From assembly GCA_001029735.1 (NCBI GenBank), contig CP011213.1, positions 332,288-396,287 on the forward strand: a stretch of DNA of 64,000 nt, given 5' to 3'. Source of the DNA: Berkelbacteria bacterium GW2011_GWE1_39_12 (GTDB lineage Bacteria > Patescibacteriota > UBA1384 > UBA12157). A model generated the notes under the pieces. The model saw only the letters and a list, made by a program, of their open reading frames with translations. It was not told the origin of the DNA and did not search any database. Made by a program: the position numbers and the translations under genes. Positions 7,036-11,329 of the stretch are shown here, one piece after another. Position 1 is the first letter of the stretch. Every line of letters starts with the position of its first letter.

Positions 7036-7401
7036 TTAACTCGCCGGCTGTAGGTCTTTTATTATTTTCACGAGATTTGCGAAGCCGGAAGTCTTGTCGT
7101 AACCGGCATCCGCTTGGAAAATTCTGGCCCTTGCTTGGGCATCGTCTTTGTTACTAAAATCACCACTCATCAGAATGATGGGGATAGAAACTTGTGCCTG
7201 CCTCAGGGCAGAAATCATCTCAGGTCCAGTCATTACTGGCATTTGGAAATCGGTCAGGATTAGATCGATATGATTTTCCTTCATACAATCCAATCCTTTT
7301 TGGCCGTTTTCTGCGGTCAGGACCTCATAACCTTCTAACTGCAGGCGCGTTTCAAGCATTTGCCGGATTTCTGGCAAATCGTCGACGAGCAGTATCTTCA
7401 T
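7036..7401 (-). CDS. single-domain response regulator (CheY-like receiver)
   Basis: MKILLVDD...LILTDFQMPVMTG...; SD GGAGGA upstream. Confidence 0.8.
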   Translation of the reverse strand: MKILLVDDLPEIRQMLETRLQLEGYEVLTAENGQKGLDCMKENHIDLILTDFQMPVMTGPEMISALRQAQVSIPIILMSGDFSNKDDAQARARIFQADAGYDKTSGFANLVKIIKDLQPAS

Positions 7402-7471
7402 TTCTCTCCTCCATACGCCCAGTGTATTTATCTAGTAAATTTTATCTGAAAATAGTCATTTTGTCAATCAA

Positions 7472-7496
7472 AAAAACAGCTTAAAGCTGTTTTTTA
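7472..7496 (-). terminator. rho-independent terminator hairpin (aaaaacagctttaagctgtttttt)
   Basis: perfect GC-containing stem plus T-run, immediately 3' of the tRNA on the minus strand. Confidence 0.6.
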
Positions 7497-7497
7497 A

Positions 7498-7573
7498 TGG
7501 TGCGCCCAGCAGGATTTGAACCTGCGACCTTCAGATCCGCAATCTGACGCTCTATCCGCTGAGCTATGGGCGC
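7498..7573 (-). tRNA. tRNA-Arg (anticodon GCG as read), CCA encoded
   Basis: revcomp gives gcgcccatagctcagcggatagagcgtcagattgcggatctgaaggtcgcaggttcaaatcctgctgggcgca-cca; the cloverleaf folds cleanly; anticodon loop is ttGCGga. Confidence 0.8.
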
Positions 7574-7618
7574 GTTTTGTATCAATCGCTCTTTAATTGC
7601 GTAGCAATTATTCTTATC

Positions 7619-7697
7619 ACTGAGCTACAGGCGCATATATGTTGATGTGCGCCTTGTTATTCCAATTCCGAAGGAATTGAGCTTTGCTACAGGCGCA
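7619..7697 (-). repeat. two copies of the tRNA 5' end (tgcgcctgtagctcag / tgcgcctgtagcaaag) at ~62-bp spacing upstream of the tRNA-Arg
   Basis: 15-17-nt matches to tRNA positions 1-15 at 7619-7635 and 7677-7697 (plus-strand coordinates). Confidence 0.7.
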
Positions 7698-7734
7698 TTA
7701 ATACACTTAATCTTAACCTATTTTATCTTATTTT

Positions 7735-8676
7735 TCAAGACTTGATTAATTCTTCCTTCAATAAAGGGACCATTTCCTTGCGCATCATAAATCCTGACCT
7801 TGTAGCTACATGATTAGTAAAATGAATATCCAAAACTTTAGAAAGAATTTTTTCTACTTCTTCAGTTGGAGCTACTATTATATTTTGATCCGCTTCGAGA
7901 TCAATAATGGTTAAGAAAACAACATCAAGACCTTGTTCTGACATAATCTTTCCGAGTTCTGACACAATCTCATCTTTTCTAGCTAAAGCCATTTCCTCTC
8001 CGCCAATCATTTCTATTTGGGCTGTTCCTAACTTATGAGAGCCAAAATTATGCCCTGCAAACCCAGCGAAGTCACTTCTTAACATCTTAATTAGTCTATC
8101 ACCTGAAAGATCTGACTTGGATAAAAACATCTTACGAGCAAAATCAGCTGGGAAATTATTTTCTTCATTTAGCCAAGCAGCAATTTCCCTATCTCTTTCA
8201 GTTGTAACTTTTGCTTGAAAATTAAGAGTATTTGAAATAATCGCACCATAAACCAAGGTAGCAATCTCTTTTGGCATTGAAAGACCTTTTTCTTTAAATT
8301 TTTCTGCAACCAAGGTGGCAGCAGCCCCAACTAACTCAATTTGAACCTTGGCATTAGGAAATTTCTCTGACATATTAATCTTGCGATGATCGACAATTTC
8401 GGTAACTTTTTCAGGATTAATTCTCTTGTCAATCCCATCCAAATCGCTTGAATCAACCAAAATAATCTCATCAAAATATTCAGGATTTTCTTCCTTAATA
8501 TTAAAATTAAGACCATATTCCATTAGCACATGGTCAGCTTCATCATGATGTCTACCTGAAACCGAAGGAACCGCTTTCATTCCCAATTGATTAAAATAAT
8601 AAGAATACGCAAAAATACAGGCAAAGCCATCTAAATCAGGATTAATATATCCAGTAACTAAAATTTTGTTTTCCAT
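7735..8676 (-). CDS. DHH/DHHA2-family phosphoesterase, family-II inorganic pyrophosphatase-like (divergent metal-binding motifs)
   Basis: 313 aa; N-terminus ...ILVTGYINPDLDG..., ...VDSSD..., ...VDHRK... align to the PpaC HQNPDTD / VDHNE / DHH motifs but with substitutions. Confidence 0.55.
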   Translation of the reverse strand: MENKILVTGYINPDLDGFACIFAYSYYFNQLGMKAVPSVSGRHHDEADHVLMEYGLNFNIKEENPEYFDEIILVDSSDLDGIDKRINPEKVTEIVDHRKINMSEKFPNAKVQIELVGAAATLVAEKFKEKGLSMPKEIATLVYGAIISNTLNFQAKVTTERDREIAAWLNEENNFPADFARKMFLSKSDLSGDRLIKMLRSDFAGFAGHNFGSHKLGTAQIEMIGGEEMALARKDEIVSELGKIMSEQGLDVVFLTIIDLEADQNIIVAPTEEVEKILSKVLDIHFTNHVATRSGFMMRKEMVPLLKEELIKS

Positions 8677-8745
8677 AAACTCATATTAGCACATCTTTAA
8701 TTATAGATGTAAGTTTGCTAAAATGGGCAAGTAAAGATCAAAAAT

Positions 8746-9906
8746 ATGAAGATAACATTACCAAAATTAAAATTTAAGATTTCTGAAACTGTGAAAGACG
8801 CTCTATCGATCACTTTACTGTTCCTCGCGTGGCGAGGCGCTCTTTTTTTAGTCGCCTACTTTGGCTATTTTGATATTGCTCCGGCAAATGGAAACTATTT
8901 AATCAAAGAGATCCATCCGGCAATTTCGATGTGGTTGGTTTATGATTATGGCTGGTTTAAAGATATTGTAGCCAAAAGTTATGACTTCAGCCGCCATTCT
9001 ATGGCTTTCTTTCCCTTATGGCCGGCCACGATTTGGTTATTCAGCAAAATATTTTATTTTGTTAATACCCATATAATAGCATTTGTTCTAGCTAACTTAA
9101 TTACTTTGGCAGACTGCTGGATTTTCTACAAATTAGTCCAATTAGACTACGACAAAGATACGGCTTACCGCTCGGTTAAATATTTTCTTTTCTTCCCAAT
9201 GAGCTTGTTTTTAGCCAGTGCTTACTCTGAACCATTATTTTTACTCGGCGTGCTTTCATCTTTTTACTTTATTCGAAAACAGCAATATCTCTTAAGCGGG
9301 TTCGGCGGAATAATTGCATCGGCTTCCAGATTAGTTGGCAGCATCATGCTTTTACCTTTAGTTATTGAAGTCATCAAGCAGAAAATTACAAAAGAAAATT
9401 GGTGGAAAACCCTCGGGATTTTAATCGCCCCGCTTGGTTTGTTAGGGTATATGTATTTTCTAAAAACAAATTATGGCGATTGCCTTGGCTTTCTGCACGC
9501 CTATCAAAACTCTGACTGGAACAGAGGGTACGGATACAACGCTTTCAATCTCTTTTGGAATGATATTAAAATTATATTTTCCTTTCACGGATTTGGGCCA
9601 TCCAAGGATTATGTCGACGCCATGATGACTACAGGTTCAGTTTTAGTGATGCTAACCGTTTTACTCTCTAATATTAAAAAAATCAGACTTTCCTATTTTG
9701 TCTATGCGATCTTGATAATGCTAGTTCCCCTCTTTTCCAACTCTTTAGACAGCTTAAACAGATATGTTTTGCCAATTTTTCCGTTTTTCATGGTTCTAGG
9801 TATTCTTGGTAGAAGAAAATGGGTCGACAGTTTAATCACCGTTACCTTCTTGGTTCTTTTAGGACTCTTTACTGTTATGTTTATCAATCGCTGGTGGGTT
9901 GGCTAA
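8746..9906 (+). CDS. polytopic membrane protein, putative GT-C-fold glycosyltransferase (DUF2029/PMT-like)
   Basis: 386 aa, ~10 TM, aromatic-rich loops; function inferred only from architecture and locus context. Confidence 0.35.
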   Translation: MKITLPKLKFKISETVKDALSITLLFLAWRGALFLVAYFGYFDIAPANGNYLIKEIHPAISMWLVYDYGWFKDIVAKSYDFSRHSMAFFPLWPATIWLFSKIFYFVNTHIIAFVLANLITLADCWIFYKLVQLDYDKDTAYRSVKYFLFFPMSLFLASAYSEPLFLLGVLSSFYFIRKQQYLLSGFGGIIASASRLVGSIMLLPLVIEVIKQKITKENWWKTLGILIAPLGLLGYMYFLKTNYGDCLGFLHAYQNSDWNRGYGYNAFNLFWNDIKIIFSFHGFGPSKDYVDAMMTTGSVLVMLTVLLSNIKKIRLSYFVYAILIMLVPLFSNSLDSLNRYVLPIFPFFMVLGILGRRKWVDSLITVTFLVLLGLFTVMFINRWWVG

Positions 9907-9956
9907 AAACCTTTATTTAATACGCAAAATTTGATAGAATAAGGTTAGAAAAATTT

Positions 9957-10083
9957 GGAGAGGGTCGCATAATAACATTGCTGATGCAAGAACGTTGTGT
10001 AACCTTCCTCGTTACATTCGGAAGGGTCGCATAAGCGAGCTTGTCCGACCATGGTATCGTAAAGTTTTGACAAACAATTTGTG
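9957..10083 (+). repeat. two ~63-bp units, each beginning with a copy of the tRNA-Ser 5' end (ggagagggtcgcata / ggaagggtcgcata)
   Basis: units start at 9957 and 10020; the tRNA starts at 10084 with ggaagggtcgcata. Confidence 0.75.
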
Positions 10084-10172
10084 GAAGGGTCGCATAGTGG
10101 CTTAGTGCGCTGGTCTTGAAAACCGGTAGGCCTGCAAGGGTCTCGTGAGTTCGAATCTCACCCCTTCCGCCA
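10084..10172 (+). tRNA. tRNA-Ser (anticodon TGA), long variable arm, CCA encoded
   Basis: GGAAGGG...ctggt-ctTGAaa-accgg...long variable arm...GTGAGTTCGAATCTCAC-CCCTTCC-G-CCA. Confidence 0.85.
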
Positions 10173-10211
10173 ATCCAAAGGAGAGAAATTAATAACTGGT
10201 GTACTTATATC

Positions 10212-10445
10212 TTGCAATGTTCAGACGGCACCTATTATACTGGGATAACAAACGATATAGAAAAGCGATTACTAGCTCATAATTCCGGTAAAGGTGCAAA
10301 GTATACATCCGGTAGAATTCCAGTAAAATTAGTTTATCGCAAAGAAAATCTGACCGAAAATCAAGCAAGAAAAAAAGAATTTACTCTGAAGACTCTTAGC
10401 CGAAAAGAGAAAGAGAAAATTATACACGGAGAGGTCGCACATTAA
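10212..10445 (+). CDS. GIY-YIG nuclease family protein (small URI-domain protein)
   Basis: [40 protein letters not shown]; no ATG, TTG start at 10212 or an unannotated upstream start; the 3' end HGEVAH* is encoded by a copy of the tRNA-Ser 5' sequence. Confidence 0.65.
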
Positions 10446-10542
10446 CCATATTTGACCCATGACTATACAAACAATTCACGGAGAGGTCGCATAACAACCT
10501 GCTGACGCAGAACGTTGTGCAACATCTCCTTCGTTTCACTAC
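10428..10542 (+). repeat. two units beginning ggagaggtcgca(c/t) upstream of tRNA-Ser(GCT); the first lies within the 3' end of the GIY-YIG ORF
   Basis: starts at 10428 and 10480; the tRNA begins at 10543 with the same 13-mer. Confidence 0.75.
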
Positions 10543-10630
10543 GGAGAGGTCGCATAGTGGCCTAGTGCGCCTCACTGCTAACGAGGTTACCCGCAAGGGT
10601 TCGAGGGTTCGAATCCCTCCCTCTCCGCCA
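10543..10630 (+). tRNA. tRNA-Ser (anticodon GCT), long variable arm, CCA encoded
   Basis: GGAGAGG...anticodon loop ctGCTaa...GGTTCGAATCCC...CCTCTCC-G-CCA; followed by a terminator hairpin at 10636-10660. Confidence 0.85.
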
Positions 10631-10729
10631 AACAAAAACATCCAATTCATTGGATTTTTTTGTTTGTTATTGACTCACCCCAAAAAATAGTCTAAAATAC
10701 AACCATCTTGGAAGACGGGAGAATCAACA

Positions 10730-11329
10730 ATGGTCTATTTTATTAGCGTATTAATTCTCCGCGTGATGGCATTCATGTTTTGGAAAATCGATTGGCTTAA
10801 TACTTCATCTATCCCGAAAACTGGGGCCGTGTTCTTCGTGAGCAAGCACAGCAGCTGGAAGGACATAATTATCATCGGCTTGGTCAGCAAGAGACCTGTA
10901 CACTTCGTCGCTAAGGTAGAGCTATGGCAGATCAACCGTTTTATATCCTGGTGGCTAAATGCAGTCGGAGCCATTCCGATAGACCGAGAACACCCTGACC
11001 CGTCGACCTTTAAGCGGGTCCGAAAACTGCTGAAAGACGGTGAAGTTGTCGCCATCTTCCCAGAAGGAACCCGAAATGATGAGAGGAAGATCACTCATTT
11101 CTTCGAGGGAGTCGGAGTCATGTCGGCCAAGATCGACATGGTTAAGTTGGTGCCTATAGTTCCTGATCATAAAGAATCCATCAAACGTTTTGGATTTGTT
11201 CCAGCTTTTCATTCCGTTGTGACGGTCGGCTGTGCCACAATCGCTGACAACCTCAAATCGAAAGATATAAACGACGCGATCGAAAGGAATCTAAAGGAAC
11301 TCGCGGCTATCGCTTTCAATCTCGCATAA
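10730..11329 (+). CDS. 1-acyl-sn-glycerol-3-phosphate acyltransferase family (PlsC-like)
   Basis: H(X4)D-type motif KHSSWKD and FPEGTRN motif; higher GC than flanking DNA. Confidence 0.65.
   Translation: MVYFISVLILRVMAFMFWKIDWLNTSSIPKTGAVFFVSKHSSWKDIIIIGLVSKRPVHFVAKVELWQINRFISWWLNAVGAIPIDREHPDPSTFKRVRKLLKDGEVVAIFPEGTRNDERKITHFFEGVGVMSAKIDMVKLVPIVPDHKESIKRFGFVPAFHSVVTVGCATIADNLKSKDINDAIERNLKELAAIAFNLA

Follow-up and report, generated by a model that had tools for sequence, protein, structure and literature searches.

Upstream units resembling the tRNA 5′ part at tRNA genes of a Berkelbacteria genome, and the association of such copies with small GIY-YIG open reading frames in Patescibacteria

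Introduction

Why should an intact tRNA gene be preceded by what look like two further beginnings of itself? This question is raised by the tRNA-Arg(GCG) gene of Berkelbacteria bacterium GW2011_GWE1_39_12, a member of the groundwater Candidatus Berkelbacteria (Candidate Phyla Radiation/Patescibacteria), which we analyzed within a stretch of 64,000 nucleotides (nt) of its genome (contig CP011213.1, positions 332,288 to 396,287; hereafter the window). Two tandem units of about 60 nt lie directly upstream of this gene on the minus strand. Judged by their sequence, these units are decayed partial copies of the tRNA-Arg gene, situated between its predicted promoter and the mature 5′ end of the tRNA. 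As for their origin, we put a probability of roughly 0.5 on the reading that such units are scars of recombination or duplication at the tRNA 5′ boundary, linked to cassettes that carry small GIY-YIG open reading frames (ORFs), with one of two types of unit having been kept as a hairpin. Labels such as L080 are our handles for the loci compared, and the coordinates of features in the window are collected in Table 1.

Results

Two degenerate copies of the tRNA 5′ part precede tRNA-Arg

A repeat search identified a family of three direct repeats at the locus, comprising the 5′ end of the tRNA itself (7559-7573) and two upstream members at 7620-7634 (87% identical) and 7682-7696 (73%), the repeats being spaced 61 and 62 nt apart. 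In minus-strand orientation, the distal unit opens with GCGCCTGTAGCAAAGC and the proximal unit with GCGCCTGTAGCTCAGTGATAAGA, to be compared with GCGCCCATAGCTCAGCGGATAGAG at the start of the tRNA; each unit opens with a near-copy of the tRNA from nt 1 up to nt 14-24. The pair of tandem units beginning with copies of the tRNA 5′ end, which a preliminary description of this DNA had reported from the sequence alone, is thereby confirmed.

Past their openings, the units (distal, GCGCCTGTAGCAAAGCTCAATTCCTTCGGAATTGGAATAACAAGGCGCACATCAACATAT; proximal, GCGCCTGTAGCTCAGTGATAAGAATAATTGCTACGCAATTAAAGAGCGATTGATACAAAAC) are built differently. The proximal unit copies approximately the first 24 nt of the tRNA, i.e., the acceptor 5′ strand and the D arm (GCGCCTGTAGCTCAGTGATAAGA), and continues with about 37 nt that are unrelated to the tRNA and end in TTGATACAAAAC; it has no significant predicted fold (z = -0.5). 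The distal unit consists, in this order, of a pseudo acceptor 5′ strand (GCGCCT) plus GTAGC, an inner stem-loop (CAATTCC-uuc-GGAATTG), the complement AGGCGC and a 13-nt tail. Its predicted minimum free energy (MFE) structure, GCGCCT...AATTCC-ttc-GGAATT...AGGCGC, is the same fold that the preliminary description had proposed, with an energy of -18 kcal/mol (z = -3.3) that was equaled by 0 of 200 shuffled sequences. We read the distal unit as a probable collapsed copy that retains both strands of the acceptor stem, and the proximal unit as what appears to be the first ~24 nt of the gene joined to unrelated sequence.

Upstream copies exceed chance expectation and match no known RNA family

A 14-mer with at most 2 mismatches is expected by chance about 8e-4 times per 250 nt, by calculation. 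Among 83 unique tRNAs of the loci compared, the first 14 nt of the tRNA (at most 2 mismatches) recur within 250 nt upstream at 10, whereas the same test yielded 0 cases downstream, 0 in reverse complement and 0.6 with permuted queries, in agreement with the earlier judgment that coincidence is unlikely. The tRNA-Arg locus has the identical sequence in five independent assemblies, so the units are not an assembly artefact. No pseudo-5′-end copies were found elsewhere in about 84 kb of this genome, and viral contigs scanned for motifs of the distal kind of unit (type A, see below) gave 0 matches.

The covariance-model search that had been suggested as a check for tRNA-like or other known structure was negative for the units: scanning the whole window with Rfam 15 at gathering thresholds returned no family over 7574-7696, 9957-10082 or 10428-10542, and in a permissive scan of 7350-10750 (E <= 10) the tRNA model scored only the true tRNAs and nothing on the units. 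The gathering threshold of this model (RF00005) is 29 bits; ARAGORN, too, calls only the three true tRNAs.

Fragments of tRNA genes beside intact tRNA genes are a classical signature of integrated elements (PMC9897764), and the units could on that ground be attachment-site remnants of integrase-type elements, such as prophages or genomic islands, in the tRNA gene; in a relative, a large serine recombinase gene (L163 1796-3550) even overlaps the 3′ end of tRNA-Arg(GCG). We consider this origin very improbable and largely refuted. What is repeated here is the 5′ part of the tRNA, on the upstream side, instead of a 3′ part on the downstream side; an element would not fit into a spacing of 52-63 nt; and no integrase or recombinase gene lies near the three tRNA loci of the window, whose neighbors encode a DHH phosphoesterase, a response regulator, a mannosyltransferase-like protein, an acyltransferase and a GIY-YIG protein. 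Moreover, none of four tRNAs of this genome has a significant pseudo-3′ end downstream (for tRNA-Arg, the match CTGGGCG has p = 0.6). The tRNA-Arg(GCG) of L163, which with its 3′ serine recombinase resembles the site of an integrated element, carries no upstream units. In other Patescibacteria, pseudo-3′ tRNA fragments occur 20-200 nt downstream of intact genes (L079 5152-5380, 8650-8800 and 12539-12650; further cases in L008 5795-6000, L041 and L016), several of them with a common GC-rich insert between the remnant of the T loop and the acceptor 3′ strand.

Two types of unit recur at four tRNA genes of the genome

The two-unit layout had also been described for both tRNA-Ser genes of the window, and we find it there, with units starting at 9957 and 10020 for Ser(TGA) and at 10428 and 10480 for Ser(GCT) (in the latter case with spacings of 52 and 63 nt, the tRNA starting at 10543). 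Checking a further 10 kb of the same genome beyond the end of the window added tRNA-Ser(CGA), which lies just past that end, so that the initial 3 of 3 tRNAs grew to 4 of 4.

Across these loci, the units are of two types. Type A (distal at Arg and Ser(TGA), proximal at Ser(GCT) and Ser(CGA)) opens with tRNA nt 1 to 11-16 and closes with their complement, forming a long hairpin with fold z-scores of -3.3 (Arg), -4.1 (Ser(TGA)) and -4.4 (Ser(GCT)). Type B opens with a copy of the tRNA 5′ part that is longer than in type A but decayed; its predicted folding is not significant (z about 0), and its tail closes with a common motif, TTGA(Y)ACAAAC. Each of the four tRNAs examined, three of which are Ser paralogs, has one unit of either type, and the order of the two from distal to proximal is A-B at Arg and Ser(TGA) and B-A at Ser(GCT) and Ser(CGA).

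The two tRNA-Ser genes of the window have a small GIY-YIG ORF between them. Its start codon in the GCA_003509005.1 annotation is an ATT, 16 nt past tRNA-Ser(TGA), and its last codons, including the stop (..HGEVAH*; CAC GGA GAG GTC GCA CAT TAA), lie in the pseudo-5′ end of the next unit. The C-terminal HGEVA is kept in the orthologous locus L166, where the stop codon lies inside unit A. At Ser(CGA) (L161), the order is a B unit, an A unit, a pseudo-5′ half with GC-rich hairpin inserts, a GIY-YIG ORF, 14 nt and the intact tRNA. This ORF (L161 7906-8148, about 0.9 kb past the window end) is broken at a run of eight A, which could mark a pseudogene, a sequencing error or a slippery site; the locus is directly downstream of the rpmH-rnpA-yidD-yidC-jag operon.

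Table 1. Features of the tRNA-Arg and tRNA-Ser loci in the window.
Feature	Position	Strand	Evidence
tRNA-Arg(GCG), intact, CCA encoded	7498..7573	-	ARAGORN; Rfam RF00005 75.7 bits
Arg proximal unit, type B	7574..7634	-	sequence, direct-repeat family; fold z = -0.5; no Rfam match
Arg distal unit, type A hairpin	7635..7696	-	fold -18 kcal/mol, z = -3.3; L080 ortholog (1795-1854)
Sigma-70-like promoter TTGAAA-17-TAAGAT, 5′ of Arg distal unit	7710..7738	-	consensus scan
Intrinsic-terminator-like hairpin AAAAAACAGCTT/AAGCTGTTTTTT, directly 3′ of tRNA-Arg	7471..7495	-	inverted repeat, sequence
tRNA-Ser(TGA) distal unit, type A hairpin	9957..10019	+	sequence; fold -20.6 kcal/mol, z = -4.1
tRNA-Ser(TGA) proximal unit, type B, tail AAAGTTTTGACAAACAATTTGT	10020..10082	+	sequence; no significant fold
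tRNA-Ser(TGA)	10083..10172	+	ARAGORN, Rfam
Small GIY-YIG nuclease ORF (predicted), 85 amino acids	10188..10445	+	Pfam PF01541 3.3e-12; gene call in GCA_003509005.1; translation
tRNA-Ser(GCT) distal unit, type B, 52 nt	10428..10479	+	sequence, repeats; not in orthologous locus L166
tRNA-Ser(GCT) proximal unit, type A hairpin	10480..10542	+	fold -23.6 kcal/mol, z = -4.4
tRNA-Ser(GCT)	10543..10630	+	ARAGORN, Rfam

Small GIY-YIG ORFs lie at tRNA 5′ ends and are accompanied by upstream copies

For the association between GIY-YIG ORFs and upstream copies, we used Patescibacteria loci that had been fetched via an unrelated gene and chosen without regard to tRNAs. A hidden Markov model search found 15 distinct GIY-YIG ORFs in these loci, 9 of which end between -15 and +19 nt from the 5′ end of a tRNA on the same strand, while a tenth ends 97 nt upstream of one. 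The stop codon is frequently within the tRNA, at least seven tRNA species are involved, and at least six of the ORFs are immediately preceded by a copy of the tRNA 5′ part. When one uniform criterion was applied to 81 tRNAs, such a copy was present upstream at 12, downstream at 1 and in reverse complement at 0. The upstream copies are statistically associated with GIY-YIG ORFs, being present at 6 of the 9 GIY-YIG-adjacent tRNAs versus 6 of the 72 others (Fisher p = 2e-4, odds ratio 22).

Individual loci fit this relationship. The leader of the orthologous tRNA-Pro(GGG) gene contains a GIY-YIG ORF in L130 and a pseudo-5′ hairpin unit in L062 and L141, with the upstream flank in common. Of the features of a SegB-like cassette, a GIY-YIG domain and a presence/absence polymorphism at an otherwise orthologous site are seen. 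The end of the ORF in L165, ATAGTTTGACAA, matches the tails of the B units at the Ser loci, ATAGTTTTGACAA and AAAGTTTTGACAA. Measured as stop-to-stop frames, the ORFs span 73-157 amino acids and mostly contain the catalytic domain only; the ORF of L077/L156 (153 amino acids) has a faint match to DUF1653, which is not a known DNA-binding domain, and two ORFs weakly match the group I intron endonuclease model TIGR01453. A group I intron was considered and rejected, there being no Rfam group I match and the downstream tRNA being complete.

ORFs that end within about 20 nt of the 5′ end of a tRNA on the same strand, or inside the tRNA, are found at L032 6380, L037 7951, L077 5463, L130 15008, L079 6544, L076 1412 and L082 4349. 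In L032, the stop codon TAG coincides with nt 8-10 of tRNA-Asp. Where the stop lies inside the tRNA, the cut by ribonuclease P (RNase P) would strip it from the mRNA, hinting that tRNA processing and nuclease expression are coupled. The same genome has a third GIY-YIG gene, of 97 amino acids (L159 12700-13200, about 1.6 kb before the window start), which is bounded by inverted repeats of about 31 bp (TGTCATGCCGGACCGGCTG..CAGGATCC / GGATCCTGC..CAGCCGGTCCGGGATGACA) in the manner of a small transposon.

Another account would be plain tandem partial duplication, by slippage or unequal crossing-over, followed by decay, with the GIY-YIG ORFs being bystanders that exploit tRNA promoters. In keeping with this, the repeat takes in 14-16 nt of upstream flank in L029 and L082, and in L082 even the -10 box; the few nt that precede real and pseudo 5′ ends are alike within a locus; and the tRNA-Arg locus has its units and no ORF. 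Bystanders would not, however, be expected from the tie between upstream copies and GIY-YIG adjacency given above, nor from ORFs placed to the nucleotide at the 5′ ends of at least seven tRNA species. Plain duplication also fits poorly with a GC-rich hairpin that recurs, inserted at one and the same tRNA position, in pseudo-copies of unrelated genomes, and a tRNA in L165 that is split by another tRNA points to insertion rather than slippage. Taken together, we judge plain duplication distinctly unlikely.

The hairpin in question, CCTGCCTGC(CG)GCAGGCAGG, follows nt 9-10 of the pseudo-tRNA copies at L037 7673, L078 1693, L079 ~7950 and L012 6750, its hosts being different tRNAs in different genomes. 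Other GC-rich hairpins sit in loops of pseudo-5′ halves in L016, L032, L076, L082 and L161. Such hairpins may be small mobile GC clusters or selected insulators. As for L165, its tRNA-Ser(TGA) at 7726-7960, the ortholog of window 10083-10172, is split in the anticodon loop by an insert of about 110 nt that is itself a different, intact tRNA-Ser(TGA); in other words, insertion into tRNA genes does occur in this group. The tRNA past the GIY-YIG ORF of the same locus (8245-8334) is a chimera with a Ser(TGA)-like 5′ part, a Ser(GCT)-like 3′ part and a broken anticodon stem, indicating that the two flanking Ser genes have recombined.

Type A units are conserved, whereas type B units are labile

In the relative represented by L080, whose neighboring DHH protein shares 56% identity, tRNA-Arg(GCG) is preceded by one unit only, of type A. 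This unit (1795-1854) keeps 15 of 15 base pairs with 2 double and 2 single compensatory changes, and is 78% identical to the Arg unit A of the window, compared with 77% for the tRNA and 62% for the promoter region. For Ser(GCT), the window and L166 share 94% identity in unit A and likewise 94% in the tRNA, compared with 73% in the adjacent ORF at the nucleotide level and 38% in a spacer; this unit A is also nearly identical to the Ser(CGA) unit A in L161. In the Ser A units, pairing holds in 96% of pair cells, and some of the changes are compensatory. When the L080 unit is aligned with its own tRNA, its 3′ part falls on the T arm plus acceptor 3′ strand (p = 0.015), suggesting that type A is a whole tRNA copy that has collapsed. 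Synteny anchored on the DHH phosphoesterase gene was mostly lost across genome and metagenome collections, and yielded an ortholog of unit A from L080 only; anchoring on the acyltransferase gene retrieved one relative, with a different arrangement.

The occurrence of the units varies among relatives. Units are absent from the Arg(GCG) orthologs of L163 and L076 and from tRNA-Ser(TGA) in L163/L164, and the L080 ortholog of Arg(GCG) has A only. The orthologous Ser(TGA)-GIY-YIG-Ser(GCT) loci form a gradient, from L165 without units through L166 with a lone A unit to the window with B plus A. The regularity seen by the preliminary description holds throughout the tRNAs examined in this genome, but it does not represent a fixed leader architecture, as the orthologs of the nearest relatives are without units or have one. 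The units are tRNA-derived and of two types, with A conserved and B labile.

The units lie behind a putative promoter and are probably transcribed

The promoter upstream of the Arg distal unit has an equivalent in L080, TTGAAA-17-TAGAAT, directly upstream of unit A, and in both the window and L080 the consensus matches lie 5-13 nt upstream of unit A. In L080, nothing stands between unit A and the tRNA; as this leaves no room for another promoter, unit A probably forms the 5′ end of the primary transcript. From the position of these promoter-like sites, which is directly seen, we infer transcription and processing: the units are probably a transcribed leader that is removed by RNase P. The genome contains rnpA, the gene for the RNase P protein, near tRNA-Ser(CGA), and ordinary 5′ processing is therefore to be expected. 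An internal promoter in the tails of type B (TTGACAAACA) was considered and dropped, as these have no properly spaced -10 box and a consensus scan finds none. In the MFE fold of the Ser(GCT) precursor, computed in silico, the pseudo-5′ strand pairs with the acceptor 3′ strand of the tRNA; competition by a free pseudo-5′ strand for this acceptor strand would explain why a copy sequestered in a hairpin persists. Directly past the tRNA-Arg terminator, a near-consensus promoter (TTGACA-17-TAAAAT, window 7439-7467, minus strand) presumably serves the response-regulator gene at 7036-7401.

These properties also bring in the possibility that the units are a functional leader kept for a purpose, with type A, perhaps together with B, being selected in the precursor RNA as a mimic of the acceptor stem. 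Such a leader might serve as a protective 5′ stem-loop, as a 3′ stabilizer of the GIY-YIG mRNA after RNase P cleavage, as a timer of folding or processing, or as a decoy for RNase P, and its resemblance to the tRNA would be needed for its function. Unit A is indeed conserved like the tRNA and above the neighboring ORF and spacers, its pairs are kept (15/15 at Arg, 96% of pair cells at Ser) with some compensatory changes, its fold z-scores run from -3.3 to -4.4, a conserved promoter lies 5-13 nt before it in both genomes compared, and units occur at all four tRNAs examined in this genome. Hairpins built in the same way, closing on the acceptor strand, precede tRNA-Pro (L062, L141) and tRNA-Leu (L029) in other Patescibacteria, and the pseudo-5′ strand is able, in silico, to compete for the tRNA 3′ strand. 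Against a required leader, orthologous tRNAs of the nearest relatives work without units (Arg and Ser(TGA) in L163, Arg in L076, and L165), the order of the units varies by locus, type B is unstructured and poorly conserved, the units match neither an Rfam family nor the tRNA model, and the similarity of A units among Ser paralogs could reflect gene conversion instead of selection. We regard a purpose-kept leader as rather unlikely: of the duplicated leader that had been suggested earlier, the conserved distal hairpin behind a conserved promoter stands, while the relatives without units tell against a fixed leader.

Discussion

The reading that we favor, recombination scars linked to GIY-YIG cassettes, can be laid out as a series of events. 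Small GIY-YIG ORFs would have lodged exactly at the 5′ ends of tRNA genes, accompanied upstream by an extra copy of the tRNA 5′ part, so that the promoter would be followed by a pseudo-5′ part, the ORF and the intact tRNA. At the tRNA 5′ boundary, recombination plausibly provoked by the nuclease would generate a partial tandem duplication that extends from the promoter-proximal leader to within the tRNA 5′ part, with the cassette sitting between the duplicated copies. Later deletion of the ORF would leave type B scars of about 60 nt, whereas collapse of a whole upstream tRNA copy would give the type A hairpin. The array would be transcribed from the original promoter, the RNase P cut at the true 5′ end freeing the tRNA, and type A may have been kept as a hairpin since a free decoy 5′ strand would compete for the acceptor 3′ strand of the tRNA. 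For the Arg units, an origin by nuclease-driven recombination is what we infer by analogy with the Ser loci; the reason given for hairpin retention is likewise interpretive. The record of repeated insertion and excision envisaged in the preliminary description fits best among its proposals, with the GIY-YIG ORFs as the candidate element, although duplication, deletion and decay describe the traces better than clean excision.

Several observations weigh against this reading. At the Arg locus itself, 7574-7740 contains no ORF and no recognizable remnant of a GIY-YIG ORF, so that the link to GIY-YIG cassettes is made there by analogy with the Ser loci only. The conservation of unit A exceeds that expected of a neutral scar and would suit a genuinely functional leader at least as well as a tolerated scar; the covariation statistics, based on only 2-3 sequences, are underpowered, with pairs kept and no significance reached. 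Exactly one A and one B unit at all four tRNAs also looks more regular than random scarring. As for the cassettes, nuclease activity and target specificity are predictions, and no separate DNA-binding domain was found in the window ORF (85 amino acids) or in most others (73-130 amino acids). The window protein is 60-65% identical to a widespread bacterial family of about 85 amino acids, and a 62%-identical homolog in a Sebaldella-type genome (L167-L172 1501-1767) is fixed beside ruvC with no tRNA nearby, which means that the family also has resident members without a link to tRNAs. Considering further that the window gene keeps its place between two tRNA-Ser genes in four relatives, it may be a resident gene rather than an active mobile one.

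By analogy, the closest precedent for the mechanism would be SegB of phages T4 and T6, a larger protein that also has a DNA-binding region. Among our ORFs and units there are likenesses and differences to it: the GIY-YIG gene lies among tRNA genes, and here the 3′ end of the ORF contains a copy of a tRNA 5′ end; on the other hand, the ORFs are cellular, abut the tRNA 5′ end to the nucleotide and encode predicted nucleases, and they are accompanied by decayed 5′ fragments and hairpin units of about 60 nt. SegB is a free-standing GIY-YIG homing endonuclease that resides within the tRNA cluster and recognizes a motif of a tRNA gene (PMC2330249, PMC13096335), and in T6 its cleavage, together with recombination, produces tandem repeats of tRNA-Tyr plus segB, aided by homology of the tRNA 5′ end to the 3′ end of segB (PMC13096335).

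Like the tRNA fragments that flank integrated elements (PMC9897764), the units are partial, non-functional copies beside an intact gene and may be a by-product of DNA insertion. They differ from attachment-site fragments in being 5′ parts that lie upstream, tens of nt away and inside the transcription unit. Classical integrase fragments are the 3′ part of the tRNA and lie downstream, kilobases off across the element, with an integrase gene adjacent. In E. coli tyrT, 178-bp tandem repeats each contain the last ~19 nt of tRNA-Tyr; these resemble our units as short tandem units beside a tRNA gene that carry copies of a tRNA terminus and arise from unequal recombination, but involve the 3′ terminus, lie downstream, and include neither a hairpin mimic nor a nuclease gene. 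GIY-YIG is also a typical intron-borne endonuclease family. Group I introns, some with homing endonuclease genes, occur in tRNA genes of Patescibacteria (PMC13011429), and share with the cassettes the character of selfish or insertion-type DNA in tRNA genes of the same phylum. Unlike these introns, the cassettes have no ribozyme, the downstream tRNA is complete rather than a 3′ exon, and function would be kept by duplication instead of splicing.

Full-text searches of the literature returned no account of tRNA genes preceded by fragments of a tRNA 5′ part, nor of GIY-YIG ORFs abutting tRNA 5′ ends in Patescibacteria. It is already known that tRNA fragments lie beside insertions and that GIY-YIG endonucleases reside in tRNA clusters; apparently new are the 5′-side geometry, the miniature cassettes in cellular genomes and the conserved hairpins that mimic an acceptor stem. 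More speculatively, and possible though doubtful in our estimation, miniature cassettes of Patescibacteria consisting of a GIY-YIG catalytic domain only may home to the tRNA 5′ boundary, ride the tRNA promoter and spare the tRNA by duplication, not splicing; their stop codon would lie in the tRNA and their mRNA would be decapitated by RNase P, and the hairpins left by their decay, such as the Arg distal unit, would be co-opted as conserved structured leaders.

If true, tRNA genes of ultra-small bacteria would be hot spots of a turnover of selfish DNA undescribed for cellular genomes, in which insertion of nuclease cassettes on the 5′ side, with function saved by partial duplication, would mirror the classical integration by integrases on the 3′ side. 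This would explain odd tRNA-like fragments that confuse tRNA annotation in metagenome-assembled genomes, and would predict long structured leaders of precursor tRNAs in genomes that are otherwise strongly reduced in size. It would also provide a testable tie between RNase P processing and nuclease expression, and the conserved hairpin that mimics an acceptor stem would be a candidate for a new cis-acting RNA element.

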